64,000 nt of DNA from assembly GCA_002713365.1 (NCBI GenBank), contig PASR01000012.1, positions 9,848 through 73,847 of the forward strand. Reading direction: 5' to 3'. The notes beneath the pieces were generated by a model. That model made no database searches. It was not told the DNA's origin and saw only the letters and a program-made list of their open reading frames with translations. The stretch is from Rhodospirillaceae bacterium. Its GTDB lineage: Bacteria > Pseudomonadota > Alphaproteobacteria > UBA6615. The stretch's first letter is position 1. Each line of letters starts with the position of its first letter. Both the position numbers and the translations under genes were made by a program. Shown here piece after piece: positions 1-31,915 of this stretch.

Positions 1-975
1 ACTTGAGCCTTTAACAAGATTATCTATCACAGTAACTAATATTACGCGACCAGGTATTCGATCAGAGAAAATTCCTGTTATAACATAATTTGATCCTCGT
101 ACATGCCGTGTTGCAGGAATTACATTATCAGAACTAATTCTAACAAACTTTTCAGAACTAAAAGAGTTTATCAAAGCATCTTTTATATCATCGAAGCGTA
201 CACCCTCTGATAAACGAAGATAAGATGTGATTAATTCTCCTCTATTCATAGGCACTAAGTGAGGCGTAAAATTAACCTTAATTCTTTTTTGTACAATCTT
301 TTCGATTTCCTGTTCAATTTCTGGTGCATGACGATGGTGGGCAATACCATAAGGATGCATTCCCTCAGCCACCTCTGAAAAAAGCGATGCCTCCTTAAGA
401 GATCTGCCAGCTCCTGTTACTCCTGATTTAGCATCAATTATAATGTCATCAACATTAATTAATTTGTCTTTAACCAGAGGTAAAATTTGTAATAATGACG
501 CAGTAGGATAACAACCAGGACATGCAATTACTCGTCCTTTAGATATATTTTCTCGATTAAACTCCGTCAGGCCGTATACAGCCTCTTTTTGGATTTCTGG
601 GGCATAATGTTTATGCCCATACCACTCGGCGTAAGTATCGACATCCTCTAATCTAAAATCTGCTGATAGATCAATTACTTTAATACTAGTTGGTATAACT
701 TTAACAATCTCTTGGGTTGTTCCATGTGGTAAAGCACAGAAGACTACATCTACATCATCCCATAATATATCTTCTGTTTTTATTAGATTTGGAAGGTTTT
801 TATTTCCCAAATGAGGAAATACCTCACCATAACTCTTCCCTGCATGAGAGTTTGCCGTCATAAATTTTATTTTAGCATTAGGATGTAACGTTAAAAGTCT
901 AACAAGCTCAACACCAGTGTAACCACTTGCGCCCAAAATGCCTATGTTGAGTTCTATTTTACTAGATGATTTCAT
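1..975 (-). CDS. argC: N-acetyl-gamma-glutamyl-phosphate reductase (ArgC), 3' end runs off the window
   Basis: Reverse translation from the ATG at 975 gives MKSSSKIELNIGILGASGYTGVELVRLL... with the NAD-binding GASGYTG motif and the catalytic Cys region (VIACPGCYPTA). The frame stays open to position 1. Confidence 0.85.
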   Translation of the reverse strand, partial: MKSSSKIELNIGILGASGYTGVELVRLLTLHPNAKIKFMTANSHAGKSYGEVFPHLGNKNLPNLIKTEDILWDDVDVVFCALPHGTTQEIVKVIPTSIKVIDLSADFRLEDVDTYAEWYGHKHYAPEIQKEAVYGLTEFNRENISKGRVIACPGCYPTASLLQILPLVKDKLINVDDIIIDAKSGVTGAGRSLKEASLFSEVAEGMHPYGIAHHRHAPEIEQEIEKIVQKRIKVNFTPHLVPMNRGELITSYLRLSEGVRFDDIKDALINSFSSEKFVRISSDNVIPATRHVRGSNYVITGIFSDRIPGRVILVTVIDNLVKGSS

Positions 976-1357
976 GGATTAAACCACCAACTAGTGGCTC
1001 TCCTTAATTAAAGTCTGTAACGTTTCTAATTGATAACAAATAATTTCTAAGCCAAAGAATCAGTTTAATGCAAATCATCTATTCTAAAACTTTTAGATTT
1101 TAAGCAAGGTAATTACTATATATTCTATTATAAGCCTGGATCCACCCTTCACGTAGCCTTACATTTAAATACTAAACTAACATCTGCCAAACGATCCAAA
1201 TAAAGGTAACAGATCTATAAAAAAACGCTCTTAAATTCTTCTCTACTAATTTGTTCTTTGTAAAAATCCAAGTATATAATTACATAGTAAAAGACATTGA
1301 CCTTAATATACAATTTATAGGATCTTCCAAAATACTAAGATTTACCAAATATTTTAA

Positions 1358-2029
1358 TTAACAGATACCAGTTTTTTTACCATTCTTGTATATTATTTTT
1401 TGTCTTATCTGACCATTTTCGTAATACTCTTCCTCAACACCATCTCTCTTACCGTTCTTGTATGTTATTTTCCGTTTTAACTGTCCGTTGTCATGATAAA
1501 TTACTACAACACCTTCTACCTTACCATTCTTCCAAGTGCCTTTTGTCCTTAACTGACCGTCGTTATAAAATTCTTCATAATCACCATGTAATTTCTCGTT
1601 CTTCCAAGTTTCTTTTTTCCATAACTGGCCATTCTCACCATACCACTCTTTCACTCCGTTTAACTTATCGTTCTTATATGTCGATTTAGTTCCAATACCA
1701 TAACGGCGATAATGTTCCCAAATACCATCTTTCTTATCGTTCTTTATAGTTCCTTTAGTCATTATCTGACCATTATCCCAATAGGATTCCCAAACGCCTA
1801 CTTTCTTACCATCTTTGTATGTTCCTTTTAATCTTAGCTGACCATTCCTAAATTTGTTTTCCACTGAACCAGTGAAAGGAACGTCTGCGAACTTTTCGTA
1901 TTTAAGTCCATTACGTTCTACTAAATCATCTCGAGATACTTTGGGACCTTCTTCATTCATATAAAAACTCTGGCATATATTGTAAGTTATGGAGTCTAAC
2001 TTTAGTTTTTTGGTTCCGTAACATCGCAA
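1358..2029 (-). CDS. YwqK/MORN-variant repeat protein (about 8 tandem ~23-aa repeats, G-x-W-x-x-Y-x-x-N-G-Q-L)
   Basis: The 223-aa ORF has repeats (KDGKKVGVWESYWDNGQI / KDGIWEHY / KLNGVKEWYGENGQL / GQLRTKGTWKNGKVEG ...) that are also visible as diverged DNA repeats. There is no signal peptide. The true start may be the internal Met (MNEEGP). Confidence 0.6.
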   Translation of the reverse strand: MRCYGTKKLKLDSITYNICQSFYMNEEGPKVSRDDLVERNGLKYEKFADVPFTGSVENKFRNGQLRLKGTYKDGKKVGVWESYWDNGQIMTKGTIKNDKKDGIWEHYRRYGIGTKSTYKNDKLNGVKEWYGENGQLWKKETWKNEKLHGDYEEFYNDGQLRTKGTWKNGKVEGVVVIYHDNGQLKRKITYKNGKRDGVEEEYYENGQIRQKIIYKNGKKTGIC

Positions 2030-2115
2030 GCTAAAGCAAGCAAACTGATACTATGATTAATACTGTTTGCAGACCTGATTCGGCAGAGGTATTTAGCTCT
2101 TTGTGAATGCATTAA

Positions 2116-2928
2116 TCATCGCGATTGACTACTTATCAAACGCTTAAGATCCTCAATCTCATTACGTACTTGCTTTAACTCCGTGCGTAAATTTTCAGCT
2201 ATATTATTTTTATCAATTTCTTTATCAGTAAATTCATTATTTTGCTTTTTTTCATTCAACGTTTGCAGAGAGTCTATGATAATGGCTATAAACAAATTTA
2301 ATACAGTAAAGCTTGATAAAATTATAAAAATTACAAATAAAAGCGAAGCCCATTGATATATTTCCATAACGGGCCGGACAATCCCCATAGACCAGCTTTC
2401 CAACGTCATAATTTGGAAAAGTGTAAACATGGAATTTCCAAGAGTACCGAACCATTCTGGAAAGTCTTGTCCAAATATTTCTGTTGTAATTACCGAGAAA
2501 ACATAAAAAACTAGTAAGAGTAATACTATAATCGCACCTACGCCAGGTACGGCATGCAAAAGAGCTGCAACTATTCTCCGCAAGCGCGGTATAGTAGACA
2601 CTAATCTGAATACTCTCAGTACTCTTAAAGCTCTTAAAACCGACAACGATTCATTAGATGGAACTAATGTTATACCAACCACTATAAAGTCAAAGATGCT
2701 CCAAGGATCACGGAAAAAACGCAATCCCTTTGCATAAATTCTTACTAAAAGTTCAATACAAAATATAATAATTACTGCCTGATCGAACAGTTTTAATTCC
2801 TGTCCAATAGCACTAGTTATTGTTGGTGATGTCTCTAACCCAAGTATTATGGCATTGATAATAATCAATGCCATAATAGATTTGTGGAAGAAAGAGTGAT
2901 CTACAAATTGTTCTATTTGCTGTCTCAT
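2116..2928 (-). CDS. Bacterial voltage-gated sodium channel (BacNav/NaChBac family), 6TM with C-terminal coiled coil
   Basis: S4 segment with Arg every third residue (LRALRVLRVFRLVSTIPRLRR). Pore helix and selectivity filter read FTLFQIMTLESWSMGIVRPV, matching the NaChBac/NavAb TLESWS filter. A charged C-terminal coiled coil is typical of BacNav neck/CTD. Confidence 0.85.
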   Translation of the reverse strand: MRQQIEQFVDHSFFHKSIMALIIINAIILGLETSPTITSAIGQELKLFDQAVIIIFCIELLVRIYAKGLRFFRDPWSIFDFIVVGITLVPSNESLSVLRALRVLRVFRLVSTIPRLRRIVAALLHAVPGVGAIIVLLLLVFYVFSVITTEIFGQDFPEWFGTLGNSMFTLFQIMTLESWSMGIVRPVMEIYQWASLLFVIFIILSSFTVLNLFIAIIIDSLQTLNEKKQNNEFTDKEIDKNNIAENLRTELKQVRNEIEDLKRLISSQSR

Positions 2929-3150
2929 CTATCTATCATCCTTATTTTATTAATTCGTTCTAAATTCCTATGTGCTCAACCCAGTAAGTATATTTGTATT
3001 AAAGAATGCTCAGCTTGAATTATATAAAATCAAGTAAAACAAATTAGCTTGTAAAGCCCTCACTATCCATCTTTTTTGGAATAACATTCTTTATGTTATT
3101 AGATAAAGGATATAGCAAATTATGATAAAGATATAAGATTGAACCTAATT

Positions 3151-3816
3151 TTACTTAACTGCTAACTTGGGCGCAACGTTACCTTGTGATTGCCCCAAGA
3201 TATTATTCCAGAAATCTTTACGATCCAAGCGCATCAAGATAGAAGTACCATTCAGGGCAGCATCTGGTGTACGGTGTAACAACCCTTTAGAGCCTCCTCT
3301 AAAAATTGCAACATCCCATCCATCTACAAACCGGCGGGCAGAAGGGTCTTTTAGGATTAACTTATTTGGCATTCCGTCTTCAAAAGCCTGGCGATCAGCG
3401 GCGGCGTCAGGAAGCCATTCCGTACCTCGCCCAGCATAAGTTACTAATAATCGAATCGGAACATTATCTATGTGATAACGGGGACATCCACGATGTGTAC
3501 CTAAACAAAAATCAATAGCATCTTCACCAACTATATCACAAAAGACGTTACAAACGTAGGCCATATCAGTAACCCAGAGTGAATAAAAGGGGTCATTTTG
3601 CAATTTGCTTGGGATATCTTCTTCAAGTATAAAATTTATATCTTCTACATTACTTTCTTTATAAACCTGTCCAACTACAGTAAACGTTGTTTTCATTAGT
3701 TTACTAAAGAACGTCTTTGATCCGTTTATAGGCTCTCTTTTAACCAAAGCTAGCTGACACTTAAGTGATTGAAACCTGGTCAAAGTTTCTAAATCTAAGG
3801 ACTCTAATACACACAT
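3151..3816 (-). CDS. Conserved hypothetical protein (possibly DUF1826-like)
   Basis: 221-aa ORF with a clean coding pattern and no recognisable catalytic motif. The family assignment is from memory only. Confidence 0.4.
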   Translation of the reverse strand: MCVLESLDLETLTRFQSLKCQLALVKREPINGSKTFFSKLMKTTFTVVGQVYKESNVEDINFILEEDIPSKLQNDPFYSLWVTDMAYVCNVFCDIVGEDAIDFCLGTHRGCPRYHIDNVPIRLLVTYAGRGTEWLPDAAADRQAFEDGMPNKLILKDPSARRFVDGWDVAIFRGGSKGLLHRTPDAALNGTSILMRLDRKDFWNNILGQSQGNVAPKLAVK

Positions 3817-3944: not shown

Positions 3945-5264
3945 TCAGCCGGTTAAGGGGAACATTTTAATCACTGTTATGCGATTGCCTTCGCGGTCCG
4001 CCACTTCAAAGCGAAATCCATGAAAGCTGAACATCTGACCCACTGTTGGTATCGTCTGGCTTTCATGGATGATCAAACCGGCAATTGTATTAGCCTCTTC
4101 ATCGGGGAGCGTGTTATCCGTAGCACGATTAAAGTCACGTATTGTCATGGCGCCATCGACGATGAACTGGCCATCAGACGTGCGTTCCAGAGTGCTATCT
4201 TCGGTTTCATCAAATTCGTCTGTAATTTCACCCACGATTTCTTCGAGGATATCTTCAAGCGTGATTAACCCCTGAAGGCTGCCATATTCATCAATAACCA
4301 AAGCAAAATGCGTATGCGAGCGTAAAAATTCCCGCATTTGGTCGTCTAAAGTTGTTGTGTTGGGAACAAAATAGGGTTTTTTTGTTACTTCTGAGATATT
4401 GAAATTCTGCAAAGCGGTCTTTGGTTCATTGCACCCACTGATAATCCGGTAGATGGTGCGCGCCAGATCTTTGGCATGCAAGACGCCTACAATGTTTTCC
4501 TGATTGTCTTTGAACATAGGAAGTCGCGTATATTTGCTTTCTAGACATTGATCCAGTATCTGCATCGGGTCAGCTTCTGCATTTACCATTTCTATGTCAG
4601 TGCGATGAAGCATAATTTCATCAACCGTTCGATCCTCAAGGTCAAGAGTGCCCAGAATGCGGTATCTGTCCTCCTTTTCAACGATCCCTTCGGAGTGCCA
4701 GATTTTAAGAGCACCGGCAATTTCTTCACGAACCGCGAGAACATTGGTTTCTGGATCTGTTTGCACGCCAAAAAGGCGCAACATAGCCCGTACGACCCAC
4801 CGCACTGCATAGACAATCGGGCTGAAGACAAGCATTATAATCTGGATCGGTCGGCTCACCATTGACGCCGCACTTTCAGCGTTTGTGATCGCATAGGTTT
4901 TGGGCAGGACTTCAGCAAAGATAAGGACCAAAACCGTCATCACCAAAGTGGCCAAAACAACCGCGCTTTCCCCGAAGCTTCTTGCCAGCAAGGCAGTTGT
5001 CAAAGAAGTTGCCAGAATATTGACAAGGTTGTTTCCCAAAAGAACAGACCCAATCAACCGCTCGCTATCCTCAGTGACATCAAGCGCACGCTGTGCGCCG
5101 CGTGAGCCTTTGTCAGCTTTTGCACGCAGTTTTCCACGTGAGGCCGCTGTAAGGGCTGTTTCGCTTCCTGAGAAAAACCCAGAAAGGATAAGAAGGGCCG
5201 TAATGGCTAAAACCGAAATCCAGAACTCGGCATCATAAAGGAGTGTTGTTTCTTCCATCGTCAT
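3945..5264 (-). CDS. HlyC/CorC (TlyC) family transporter: DUF21 (CNNM) membrane domain + CBS pair + CorC_HlyC C-terminal domain
   Basis: 439 aa with N-terminal TM helices (SGFFSGSETAL motif), a CBS pair region and a C-terminal CorC/HlyC transporter-associated domain. Confidence 0.8.
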   Translation of the reverse strand: MTMEETTLLYDAEFWISVLAITALLILSGFFSGSETALTAASRGKLRAKADKGSRGAQRALDVTEDSERLIGSVLLGNNLVNILATSLTTALLARSFGESAVVLATLVMTVLVLIFAEVLPKTYAITNAESAASMVSRPIQIIMLVFSPIVYAVRWVVRAMLRLFGVQTDPETNVLAVREEIAGALKIWHSEGIVEKEDRYRILGTLDLEDRTVDEIMLHRTDIEMVNAEADPMQILDQCLESKYTRLPMFKDNQENIVGVLHAKDLARTIYRIISGCNEPKTALQNFNISEVTKKPYFVPNTTTLDDQMREFLRSHTHFALVIDEYGSLQGLITLEDILEEIVGEITDEFDETEDSTLERTSDGQFIVDGAMTIRDFNRATDNTLPDEEANTIAGLIIHESQTIPTVGQMFSFHGFRFEVADREGNRITVIKMFPLTG

Positions 5265-5476: not shown

Positions 5477-5953
5477 TTAACGCTTGGAGAACTGGAAGCT
5501 TCTTCTGGCTTTAGCTCTACCATATTTTTTTCTTTCAACAACTCTTGAGTCACGTGTCAGCATACCAGCTTTCTTAAGAACTGACCTTAAACCCGGTTCT
5601 CGGAGACTCAGGGCCTTAGACAGTCCATGTCTAACTGCTCCAGCCTGACCTGAGAGTCCACCGCCAGCAACCGTGCAAACAATGTCATACTGTCCAAGAC
5701 GTTCTGTTATTTGGAAAGGCTGAGATAGAACCATTCGAAGTACAGGTCGGGCGAAGTAAACCCCTCCTTCCCGTCCGTTTACAGTTAAAGCACCGGTACC
5801 AGGTTTTATCCAAACTCTTGCTACAGCATCTTTTCTTTTACCAGTAGCGTATGTTCTTCCCAAATCATCAATTAAGGGCTCTTGGCTAACTGGAGTGGGT
5901 ATTTCGTCTGCCAACGAATTCGAGACTTGGGCCGTTTCATCGGTCATAGTCAC
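5477..5953 (-). CDS. rpsI: 30S ribosomal protein S9
   Basis: C-terminus ...[14 protein letters not shown] is canonical S9. Overlaps the rplM stop (ATGA). Confidence 0.95.
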
Positions 5954-7484: not shown

Positions 7485-7919
7485 TTGAATAGTAAATTAT
7501 TTTATTCAGATAAAATGTTAAAATCTTTATTTGAAAATATAAAAACAATTGCACTGGTCGGTGCCAGTCCAAGGGGCCCAAGCAGAGCTAGTTGGAGAGT
7601 AATGCAATTTCTACAATTGCAAGGATATAAAGTTTATCCTGTAAACCCAAATGCTAGTGGTGACACTATTAATGGTGAAGTTACTTATGATTCCTTAAAA
7701 GATGTTCCTGAAAAAGTTGATCTTGTGGATATATTTCGTCGTTCAAGCAAAGTTTCTACAATAGTAGATGAAGCAATAAAGTTAAAAATTCCTTATATAT
7801 GGATGCAACTTGACGTTATTGACAGGCTAGCAGCAGAAAAGGCAGAAAATGCCGGAACGATTGTTATAATGGATCGATGCCCAGCAATAGAGATACCAAG
7901 GTTAATATCCCAGGGTTAA
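7485..7919 (+). CDS. CoA-binding domain protein (YccU/YneT-like), paralog 1
   Basis: 144 aa with IALVGASPRGPSRASWRVMQFLQLQGYKVYPVNP, a CoA-binding Rossmann-like domain. Starts 4 nt after the upstream gene. Confidence 0.75.
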   Translation: MNSKLFYSDKMLKSLFENIKTIALVGASPRGPSRASWRVMQFLQLQGYKVYPVNPNASGDTINGEVTYDSLKDVPEKVDLVDIFRRSSKVSTIVDEAIKLKIPYIWMQLDVIDRLAAEKAENAGTIVIMDRCPAIEIPRLISQG

Positions 7920-7957: not shown

Positions 7958-8449
7958 ATGGAACCGCTATATTATCCAGAGTGGCTTATACGCCGCATTC
8001 TAAGAGATACAAATATAATTGCTATGGTTGGAGCAAGCAGTAATTGGAACAGGCCAAGTTACTTTGCTATGAAATACCTTCAATCAAAAGGCTATAGAAT
8101 CATTCCCGTGAATCCAACAATCAGTGGAACCAAATTGCTAGGTGAAAATGTTTATGCCAACCTTAAAGATATTCCAGAAAAAATAGAAATGGTGGATATA
8201 TTTCAAAAGTCTGAACGCGTTCCTGAAATAGTAGATGATGCGATTAGTATTGACGCCAAAATAGTTTGGATGCAACTGACTGTTCGACATGATTTAGCAG
8301 CTAAAAAAGCTGAAAAAGCAGGTCTTACTGTAATTATGGACAGATGTCCTAAAATAGAATTTGGTCGATTTAGCGGAGAATTAGGTTGGAACGGAATTAA
8401 TACACGTCTTATAACTTCACGACGTTCTAAAGAAATTAGAACAAACTAA
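7958..8449 (+). CDS. CoA-binding domain protein, paralog 2 (tandem duplicate)
   Basis: 163 aa and collinear with the previous ORF (IAMVGASSNWNRPSYFAMKYLQSKGYRIIPVNP ... VWMQL ... IMDRCP). Confidence 0.75.
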   Translation: MEPLYYPEWLIRRILRDTNIIAMVGASSNWNRPSYFAMKYLQSKGYRIIPVNPTISGTKLLGENVYANLKDIPEKIEMVDIFQKSERVPEIVDDAISIDAKIVWMQLTVRHDLAAKKAEKAGLTVIMDRCPKIEFGRFSGELGWNGINTRLITSRRSKEIRTN

Positions 8450-12003: not shown

Positions 12004-12080
12004 TGGTCGGGACGGCAGGATTTGAACCTGCGACCCCCACACCCCCAGTGTGATGCGCTACCAGACTGCGCTACGTCCCG
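12004..12080 (-). tRNA. tRNA-Pro (anticodon GGG)
   Basis: Cloverleaf on the minus strand: acceptor CGGGACG/CGTCCCG, D-arm GCGC-AGTCTGGTA-GCGC, anticodon arm TCACA-CTGGGGG-TGTGG (U33, GGG, G37), T-arm GCAGG-TTCAAAT-CCTGC, discriminator A and an encoded CCA. Confidence 0.9.
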
Positions 12081-30656: not shown

Positions 30657-30684
30657 AGAGTTTTATAAAACTAATATTTTAACA

Positions 30685-30762
30685 ACTGGGGTGTCGCCTT
30701 TTCTAGTCGACTGAGATCATACCCATAGAACCTGAGCTGGATAATGCCTGCGTAGGGAGTAA
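30685..30762 (+). promoter_or_regulatory. TPP (thiamine pyrophosphate) riboswitch, THI element
   Basis: ACUGGGGUGUCGCC...CUGAGA...ACCC..GAACCUGAGCUGGAUAAUGCCUGCGUAGGGAG is a near-perfect match to the THI-box consensus (GGGGUG, CUGAGA, ACCUGAUCUGGAUAAUGCCAGCGUAGGGAA). It sits directly upstream of thiO-thiS-thiG. Confidence 0.9.
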
Positions 30763-30766
30763 AATT

Positions 30767-31915
30767 ATTAATAAATTTTCAAATTCTCAACCTAATGTAT
30801 CTATAATAGGCGCAGGTGTATGCGGTCTAAGTATAGGCTGGCGGTTAGCTAGTGCTGGTTGTCAAGTTAATATATATGAGCGCGGCAAATCTGGACGGGC
30901 AGCTTCTTGGGCTGCTGCTGGTATGTTAGCAGCTGGCGTTGAATGTGAACCCGGAGAAGAAAACCTATTAAAGCTAACAACATTAAGTCAGAAACTTTGG
31001 CCTAAATTTCTTCATGACCTTAGCAAAGACTCTAAACAAAATCCTGAGTATCGCAATGAAGGAACACTTGTTGTTGCTATAAACCGTGATGACGCGACAA
31101 GATTAGAATTCACCTATAATTTTCAAAAGAACCTTGGAATAAACCTTGAATGGCTTGATGGATATGAAACTAGAAAACTTGAGCCTCATTTAAACCCATC
31201 TATCGTGGCTGGCGTATACAGTTCTAACGATCATCAAATAAATAATCGTTTACTTATGAGATCATTAGAGGAAGCCTTTGTTCATAAAGAAGGAATAATT
31301 CACGAGTACACAGAAGTAACTGACATAGAGACACATAATGAATCTGTGAAGGGTATAATAGTTGATGGCTCATTAATAGAAACTGATGTGGTGATTATTG
31401 CAGCAGGTGCCTGGTCTAATAATATAAACGGACTTACTAAGGAATGTATCCCTCCGGTCAGACCTGTTAAGGGACAAATGCTATCATTGAAAATGGAGCA
31501 AAATTCACCGCTATTAAAACATGTAATTTGGGCCCCAAATGCATATTTAGTTCCACGTAATGATGGAAGTTTATTAGTTGGAGCAACTATAGAGGAAAAT
31601 GGTTTTAATCCCGACTTAACAGCTGGTGGAATATTTTCCTTGTTAGAGGCCTCTTGGCGTGTGATACCAAATATTGAAGAGTTACCCATAAAAGAAATGT
31701 GGGCTGGATTCAGGCCAACTAGCAGAGACGATGCTCCAATACTTGGCGCAACAAAGATTAAAGGACTTGTAATGGCAACAGGTCATCACAGAAATGGGAT
31801 ACTTCTAGCACCAGTTACAGCTAACGCGGTAAGTGAATTAATTTTAAATGGTGAAACAACTAAAGAAGTAGAGCCTTTTTCAATAGAACGATTCAATAAT
31901 AACATTGAACATTAA
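30767..31915 (+). CDS. thiO: Glycine oxidase ThiO (FAD-dependent); start probably non-AUG (AUU at 30764/30767), because the ATG at 30923 would remove the FAD-binding GxGxxG motif
   Basis: In-frame extension upstream of 30923 encodes ...NVSIIGAGVCGLSIGWRLASAGCQVNIYERGKSG..., the Rossmann dinucleotide-binding motif. That frame is open back to the stop at 30704 and contains no ATG/GTG/TTG. An AGGGAG Shine-Dalgarno at 30754-30759 precedes ATT codons. Confidence 0.7.
   Translation: MNKFSNSQPNVSIIGAGVCGLSIGWRLASAGCQVNIYERGKSGRAASWAAAGMLAAGVECEPGEENLLKLTTLSQKLWPKFLHDLSKDSKQNPEYRNEGTLVVAINRDDATRLEFTYNFQKNLGINLEWLDGYETRKLEPHLNPSIVAGVYSSNDHQINNRLLMRSLEEAFVHKEGIIHEYTEVTDIETHNESVKGIIVDGSLIETDVVIIAAGAWSNNINGLTKECIPPVRPVKGQMLSLKMEQNSPLLKHVIWAPNAYLVPRNDGSLLVGATIEENGFNPDLTAGGIFSLLEASWRVIPNIEELPIKEMWAGFRPTSRDDAPILGATKIKGLVMATGHHRNGILLAPVTANAVSELILNGETTKEVEPFSIERFNNNIEH

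Follow-up and report, generated by a model that had tools for sequence, protein, structure and literature searches.

Do bacterial voltage-gated sodium channel (BacNav) genes have a conserved partner gene encoding a MORN-type repeat protein? The question is raised by a 64,000-nucleotide stretch of a marine Rhodospirillaceae genome (GenBank assembly GCA_002713365.1, contig PASR01000012.1, positions 9,848 to 73,847 of the forward strand; this whole stretch is referred to as the window), in which a BacNav gene (2116..2928, minus strand) is followed on the same strand by a gene for a MORN_2 (PF07661, 'YwqK-type') repeat protein (1358..1960). An earlier reading of the window from its letters alone (the sequence-only reading) raised the possibility that the two genes form a conserved, accessory-subunit-like pair, and named coincidental adjacency as the alternative. 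If true, a conserved BacNav-MORN pair would represent, as far as our literature searches show, the first auxiliary subunit of these channels and a prokaryotic parallel to the coupling between junctophilins and channels. Our analysis indicates instead that the channel and MORN_2 genes are very probably functionally independent, and that their adjacency is a recent arrangement at the level of the species.

Survey of BacNav loci

BacNav loci were collected in three sets: 80 loci with flanks of 6 kb, each GTDB species being represented by a single genome, 80 metagenome loci found using the window channel protein, and 13 loci from exact-protein look-ups of close relatives. A tblastn search with the MORN_2 protein as query found no match in the first 85 loci. 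Because the sensitivity of tblastn could be low, 148 individual MORN_2 repeats were used to build a hidden Markov model (HMM), and the six-frame open reading frames (ORFs) of the loci were scanned with it, the window ORF being the positive control (E value ~1e-36). Among the first 165 loci the only matches besides the window are in L086 and L089, and tblastn on the later look-up loci showed MORN_2 also in L166–L173. All of these MORN_2-bearing BacNav loci are from the same species as the window, with 100% identity in ribosomal proteins L13 and S9, 99–100% in the channel and 99–100% in the MORN_2 protein, and their spacers differ by 0–6 mismatches; in the 155-nucleotide spacer between the two genes the conspecific contigs differ by 0–4. 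Being conspecific, they carry no information on evolutionary conservation. For the 163 non-conspecific BacNav loci, neither the HMM nor tblastn found MORN_2 beside the channel within the fetched flanks (0/163); the flank downstream of the channel is 1 kb or longer in 132 of these loci, and both flanks reach this length in 117. The pairing is thus found in one species only, and lack of conservation in relatives is the outcome that the sequence-only reading had itself named as refuting a conserved pair.

The closest relatives of the window species have the channel gene without its neighbor. In the sister clade, with identities to the window of 85–87% for the channel, 83–85% for L13 and 80% for S9, the gene order is ECH and two copies of CoA_binding_2, followed by L13, S9, channel, GYD and FTHFS, with no MORN_2. 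The spacer after the sister-clade channel is 147 nucleotides long, which leaves no room for a MORN_2 remnant. The identity of the channel equals or exceeds that of the ribosomal proteins (80–85%), and this points to strong purifying selection on the channel. In a more distant clade (73–75% channel identity), the order is CoA_transf_3, HMGL-like and channel, and then a convergent gene for an AidB-like acyl-CoA dehydrogenase; MORN_2 is again absent.

There is also no other gene that accompanies the channel generally. When flanking ORFs within 3 kb were clustered into families, each was limited to 14 or fewer of the 158 loci; the families that do recur, several being encoded on the opposite strand, reflect clade-level synteny, and no neighbor of the window channel is among them. 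No partner gene is conserved for BacNav genes in general, and the lack of a recurrent neighbor across some 160 proteobacterial loci is consistent with BacNav proteins being stand-alone channels. Literature searches found no paper pairing BacNav with MORN, and nothing relevant on BacNav auxiliary subunits or operons.

Neighborhoods of MORN_2 homologs

The same question can be asked from the side of the MORN_2 gene, and no Ion_trans or other ion-channel gene is present in any of six MORN_2 homolog neighborhoods (0/6). One of these is in the sister metagenome-assembled genome (MAG) GCA_002937505.1, in which contig PTJY01000004.1 (L004) carries the channel, whereas the best MORN_2 relative, P0034 (124 residues, 39% identity, signal-less), lies on PTJY01000003.1, between 2OG-Fe(II) oxygenase and Meth_synt_2 genes; the two are unlinked. 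The other neighborhoods contain an MFS transporter, a hypothetical gene and CMD (P0009), a Phage integrase (P0019), a Phage integrase inside a duplicated segment (P0058), a tandem MORN_2 gene and a resolvase (P0035), and a tandem MORN_2 gene with Adhesin_E (P0093). Integrase or resolvase genes occur in three of the six contexts and tandem MORN_2 paralogs in two, and these small MORN_2 genes behave as flexible-genome genes.

Coincidental adjacency, the second possibility in the sequence-only reading, is therefore the one that gains support, from the restriction of the pairing to one species, the 0/163 loci, the 0/6 MORN_2 contexts and the unlinked genes of GCA_002937505.1. As the BacNav-MORN pair is not conserved, the prospect of an accessory subunit falls away.

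We also note that small marine MORN_2 genes are often in tandem or beside Adhesin_E, phage-integrase or resolvase genes (L180, L181/L182, L183/L184 and L185), and that a segment with MORN_2 and an integrase is present twice in one contig (L183/L184). This suggests that these genes travel on mobile or flexible elements.

The channel gene

The channel gene (2116..2928) codes for a 270-residue protein with a single six-transmembrane Ion_trans domain, four arginines in S4, a TLESWSM motif and a C-terminal coiled-coil tail. The Pfam Ion_trans match covers residues 11–228 (E 7e-47), and a phmmer search of the PDB aligns residues 4–267 with NavAb chains 5vb2, 3rvy and 4ekw (E ~4e-80). The S4 segment (LRALRVLRVFRLV) aligns with that of NavAb (LRVLRVLRLFRLV) such that the arginines at positions 99, 102, 105 and 108 are opposite the NavAb gating charges, and all four (R99, R102, R105 and R108) are invariant across 15 channel relatives with 61–100% identity. 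The selectivity filter (TLESWSM, residues 175–181) is the same as in NavAb, and T175 to W179 together with M181 are invariant in the alignment of 15 relatives. The heptad-like tail (NLRTELKQVRNEIEDLKRLISS, residues ~240–267) aligns in sequence with the C-terminal domain of NavAb, comprising the neck and coiled coil. The identification of this ORF as a BacNav gene in the sequence-only reading is borne out by the Ion_trans and NavAb matches, and the S4 arginine periodicity, filter and coiled coil that it listed are all recovered in the NavAb alignment.

The protein is identical to NCBI entry MBC93695.1, a 'hypothetical protein' from a marine Rhodospirillaceae MAG. Judged by its sequence, it is a genuine channel of the NavAb/NaChBac type, ordinary and stand-alone, and it is a new sequence within a thoroughly known family. 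NavAb and NaChBac are homotetrameric voltage-gated Na+ channels. From the near full-length homology to these, four of the 270-residue subunits would be expected to come together via the C-terminal coiled coil, with voltage sensed by the S4 arginines, four per subunit, and Na+ selected by the ring of Glu177 residues in the TLESWSM filter.

The MORN_2 gene and its spacers

The MORN_2 gene has two possible starts. The longer open frame (1358..2029, minus strand) begins with a TTG at 2029 and encodes 223 residues; it matches Pfam MORN_2 with an E value of 3.2e-28 (94.9 bits versus a gathering cut-off of 29.6) in four stretches above threshold, and our repeat HMM reports 11 envelopes within it. Gene callers, however, place the start on eight conspecific contigs at the ATG equivalent to window position 1960, giving a protein of 200 residues. 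The distance of 86 nucleotides from the channel stop and the length of 223 residues given in the sequence-only reading thus hold for the TTG start, but with the ATG the spacer is 152–155 nucleotides on conspecific contigs and 155 nucleotides in the window (1961..2115, minus strand, AT-rich).

Neither start gives a hydrophobic N-terminus, the maximum 10-residue Kyte-Doolittle mean being 0.88 for the 200-residue form and 0.37 for the 223-residue form, and no transmembrane segment or signal peptide was found in the window protein. These values and the PF07661 score agree with its earlier description as a MORN-variant repeat protein without a signal peptide, encoded on the same strand as the channel. 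A search of the PDB found no sequence relatives. No NCBIfam equivalog matches the protein, and the single NCBIfam match, to the LIC20035 adhesin family, scores 48.7 bits where 250 are required.

A second AT-rich spacer (976..1357, minus strand, 382 nucleotides, GC ~0.26–0.29) separates the MORN_2 stop from the next gene and bounds the lineage-specific segment on its far side. Scanning of the 155-nucleotide spacer revealed no terminator-like hairpin and no promoter-like consensus site, with site counts at or below shuffle expectation, and the RNA folds of the two spacers are no better than those of shuffled sequences (z = 0.09 for 155 nucleotides and z = 0.10 for 382 nucleotides); these scans and folds neither support nor exclude co-transcription.

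Predicted structure and relatives of the MORN_2 protein

An AlphaFold2 model of the MORN_2 protein made with a 26-sequence alignment has a mean pLDDT (predicted local distance difference test) of 91.1 and a pTM (predicted template modelling score) of 0.81. It predicts 18 beta-strands that form an N-terminal cap and about eight 23-residue hairpins in a single-layer beta-hairpin solenoid, in keeping with the count of about eight MORN-variant repeats made previously; one repeat (residues ~85–108) is degenerate and modelled with low confidence. Foldseek searches of the PDB with this model match MORN1 of Plasmodium, Toxoplasma and Trypanosoma (6t4d, 6t69; E ~1e-6, probability 1.00) and junctophilin-2 (9uo9, 7rxq; E 1.6e-4 to 5.8e-4, probability 1.00), including a structure with a CaV1.1 peptide (7rxq). 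Further matches are to engineered OspA single-layer sheets and to radial-spoke and axonemal MORN proteins. Identities to the eukaryotic MORN proteins are 17–21% with TM-scores (template modelling scores) of 0.3–0.36, and the analogy to junctophilins drawn in the sequence-only reading holds at the level of the fold. A membrane anchor is absent: the model is all-beta, with no helix or hydrophobic tail, and the protein ends in ...IIYKNGKKTGIC. Most likely it is a soluble cytoplasmic protein-binding solenoid or scaffold, and it is a new member of the large and poorly characterised MORN_2 family.

The N-terminus sets the window protein apart from most of its relatives. Among the closest 118 homologs starting with methionine, 98 have a signal-peptide-like hydrophobic N-terminus. 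The window protein and four homologs (P0034, P0046, P0085 and P0108) are signal-less and start directly at an N-cap motif, DLVxRxGLxYxKFxDVPFTG, that is common to more than 1,300 marine MORN_2 homologs. One explanation is that the window gene is a decaying remnant of a gene for an exported protein, in which a frameshift in a run of six A residues severed a signal or lipoprotein peptide and left an ORF starting at an internal ATG. The hydrophobic N-termini of the 98 homologs are consistent with this, as is a 36-codon ORF in another frame of the spacer (within 1961–2115, minus strand; MHSQRAKYLCRIRSANSINHSISLLALACDVTEPKN, followed by a stop), which contains a signal- or lipobox-like stretch (Kyte-Doolittle mean 2.19) ending in ...LALAC. 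This ORF stops at the A6 run (CCAAAAAACTAA), and a shift of one nucleotide there would join it to the MORN_2 frame. However, AT-rich spacers give hydrophobic stretches by chance, and VLIIVSVCLL is encoded in a further frame of this spacer; moreover, the conspecific variant L166 has Trp in place of the Cys and Phe in place of a Leu in the upstream ORF. The existence of the four signal-less homologs starting at the same N-cap also argues against decay, as does the 603-nucleotide ORF itself, which is intact and has a synonymous bias in all variants. The out-of-frame 'signal peptide' is most likely a chance feature, and we regard the decay of an exported protein as highly improbable.

YwqK-like MORN_2 proteins are known in the polymorphic-toxin field to act as immunity proteins, and another explanation is that the gene is an orphan YwqK-type immunity (antitoxin) gene of a polymorphic-toxin system whose toxin was lost, its product neutralising an incoming toxin domain by binding to it in the cytoplasm. 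Several database sources label the homologs 'antitoxin component YwqK of YwqJK toxin-antitoxin module', although YwqK is an automatic family label and there is no NCBIfam equivalog match behind it. Being cytoplasmic and without a signal peptide, the window protein resembles what would be expected of such an immunity protein, but the signal-peptide-like N-termini of 98 of the 118 closest homologs are ill-fitting for cytoplasmic immunity. The homologs also lie in flexible regions near integrases, resolvases and tandem paralogs, a setting common for orphan immunity genes; in the window, however, there is no adjacent toxin-like gene and no toxin-like ORF in 1..3150, the neighbors being the channel and an ArgC-like gene. 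A role as an orphan immunity gene thus seems unlikely, and it is compatible with independence from the channel.

Local gene order

In the window species the minus-strand order is L13, S9, CNNM/CorC, DUF1826, channel, MORN_2 and ArgC-like. The first two are rplM (L13; 5950..6429) and rpsI (S9; 5477..5953), which are syntenic anchors shared with the sister clade, where rpsI directly precedes the channel. A gene for a CNNM/CBS/CorC_HlyC (CorC-type) transporter (3945..5264) is situated between rpsI and the DUF1826 gene (3151..3816, 221 residues, Pfam 3.1e-28), and the latter is 222 nucleotides upstream of the channel. The gene following MORN_2 (1..975) is cut by the window edge and belongs to the semialdehyde-dehydrogenase family (ArgC-like), as indicated by the Pfam Semialdhyde_dh match of the equivalent 351-residue gene in L166 and L170. 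All of these are on the minus strand.

Of this order, the sister clade retains just L13, S9 and the channel, beyond which its genes are different. As the two diverge after the channel, MORN_2 is located exactly at a synteny breakpoint, flanked by the AT-rich spacers of 155 and 382 nucleotides. The ArgC-like gene follows MORN_2 on conspecific contigs only and was not found in the sister-clade loci, and DUF1826, like MORN_2, is near the channel only on conspecific contigs.

Several other features of the region are worth recording. In the two closest clades (L001–L005, L087 and L088) the BacNav gene is on the same strand as rplM-rpsI and just downstream of them. The CNNM/CorC gene has a GC content of 0.44–0.51 compared to 0.32–0.38 for the surrounding genes, and 13 non-synonymous differences among conspecific contigs, more than its neighbors; neither CNNM/CorC nor DUF1826 separates rpsI from the channel in sister-clade loci. 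This could reflect either a recent insertion or variability of the locus. An enoyl-CoA hydratase-like ORF is followed by tandem paralogs of CoA_binding_2 type (7485–7919 and 7958–8449, plus strand, 144 and 163 residues), labelled from the equivalent conspecific genes, and this arrangement is kept in the sister clade. Two RNA features unrelated to the channel or MORN_2 are a TPP riboswitch (Rfam RF00059, 62.9 bits) at 30677–30775 on the plus strand and a tRNA-Pro(GGG) gene at 12004–12080 on the minus strand.

A possible species-specific partnership

Although the pairing is not conserved, the MORN_2 protein could still serve the channel in this species alone. In such a scheme it would be co-transcribed with the channel and either bind the cytoplasmic neck or coiled coil or tether the channel to the membrane as a junctophilin does, modulating gating or localisation. 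The arrangement is suited to this in that the genes are on the same strand, 155 nucleotides apart with no terminator-like site between them, the signal-less protein would share a compartment with the channel C-terminal domain, the MORN-type fold matches the junctophilin-2/CaV1.1 peptide complex, and variants in the population keep the ORF whole and differ mostly at synonymous positions. None of the 163 other BacNav loci has the partner, however, including the sister clade at 85–87% channel identity, where the channel is as conserved as the ribosomal proteins with no MORN_2 neighbor and where, in one genome, the channel and a MORN_2 relative are unlinked. The MORN_2 protein also has no transmembrane anchor and shows no sign of lipid binding. 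An accessory subunit specific to this species is therefore very unlikely. A narrower form, in which this species alone has recently recruited a signal-less MORN_2 solenoid that is co-transcribed with the channel and partners the BacNav C-terminal domain in the cytoplasm, is likewise very unlikely; if true, it would be a bacterial and independently evolved analogue of junctophilin-channel coupling.

Some observations do weigh against functional independence and a recent origin of the adjacency. First, the locus survey is blind to partners encoded elsewhere in the genome. Second, the 200-residue MORN_2 gene is called on many conspecific contigs without a recorded Pfam match, and because the conspecific proteins are missing from the protein collection, the absence of close orthologues there is unreliable evidence; a protein-level homolog search of this collection, which returned no orthologue above 47% identity and lacked the 99–100% identical conspecific proteins, was not used, and the analysis relied on loci at the DNA level. 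The same caution applies whenever a repeat protein is inferred to have no orthologue. Third, with no terminator visible between the channel and MORN_2, a shared transcript is possible in this species. Fourth, the GC content of the MORN_2 gene (~0.36) matches that of the channel and the ArgC-like gene, so that its composition gives no hint of a recent import. Fifth, the 603-nucleotide ORF is intact in all conspecific variants, with synonymous and non-synonymous differences of four and one, three and two, and two and none, respectively, mostly synonymous; these are five or fewer in each variant, too few for a real estimate of dN/dS (the ratio of non-synonymous to synonymous rates), and weakly suggest that the gene is maintained in the species. 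Last, the junctophilin-like fold, one such domain of which binds a CaV1.1 peptide (7rxq), makes a species-specific interaction physically conceivable.

We nonetheless favor functional independence of the two genes. MORN_2 would then be a lineage-specific accessory gene at the point where synteny with the nearest relatives breaks, and it may share one transcript with the channel in this species without the two being a conserved functional pair. What remains is a well-conserved, ordinary BacNav of an uncultured marine alphaproteobacterium, beside a repeat protein of the flexible genome.

Comparison with known systems

The window channel resembles NavAb of Arcobacter butzleri and NaChBac in its size of ~270 residues, its single six-transmembrane Ion_trans domain and its full-length alignment, as well as in having an S4 arginine at every third position four times over, the TLESWSM filter and the coiled-coil tail. 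It differs from NavAb by sequence divergence only, with many substitutions along the full alignment, and in its source, an uncultured marine Rhodospirillaceae MAG.

The MORN_2 protein shares with other PF07661 (COG2849 'YwqK') proteins the 23-residue repeats of the form G-x-W/Y...NGQ...G-x-YKNGK and the N-cap, but unlike most of these relatives it has no signal-peptide-like N-terminus; its gene also differs from YwqJK-type pairs in having no toxin partner gene beside it. Compared with eukaryotic MORN proteins, it belongs to Pfam MORN_2 rather than MORN and has neither a conserved genomic association with a channel nor a known physical one, and it lacks the C-terminal membrane anchor (a transmembrane helix) of junctophilins. 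Its likeness to junctophilins, MORN1 and the radial-spoke MORN proteins is at the level of the fold, in the elongated single-layer sheet of antiparallel beta-hairpins that all of them appear to share.

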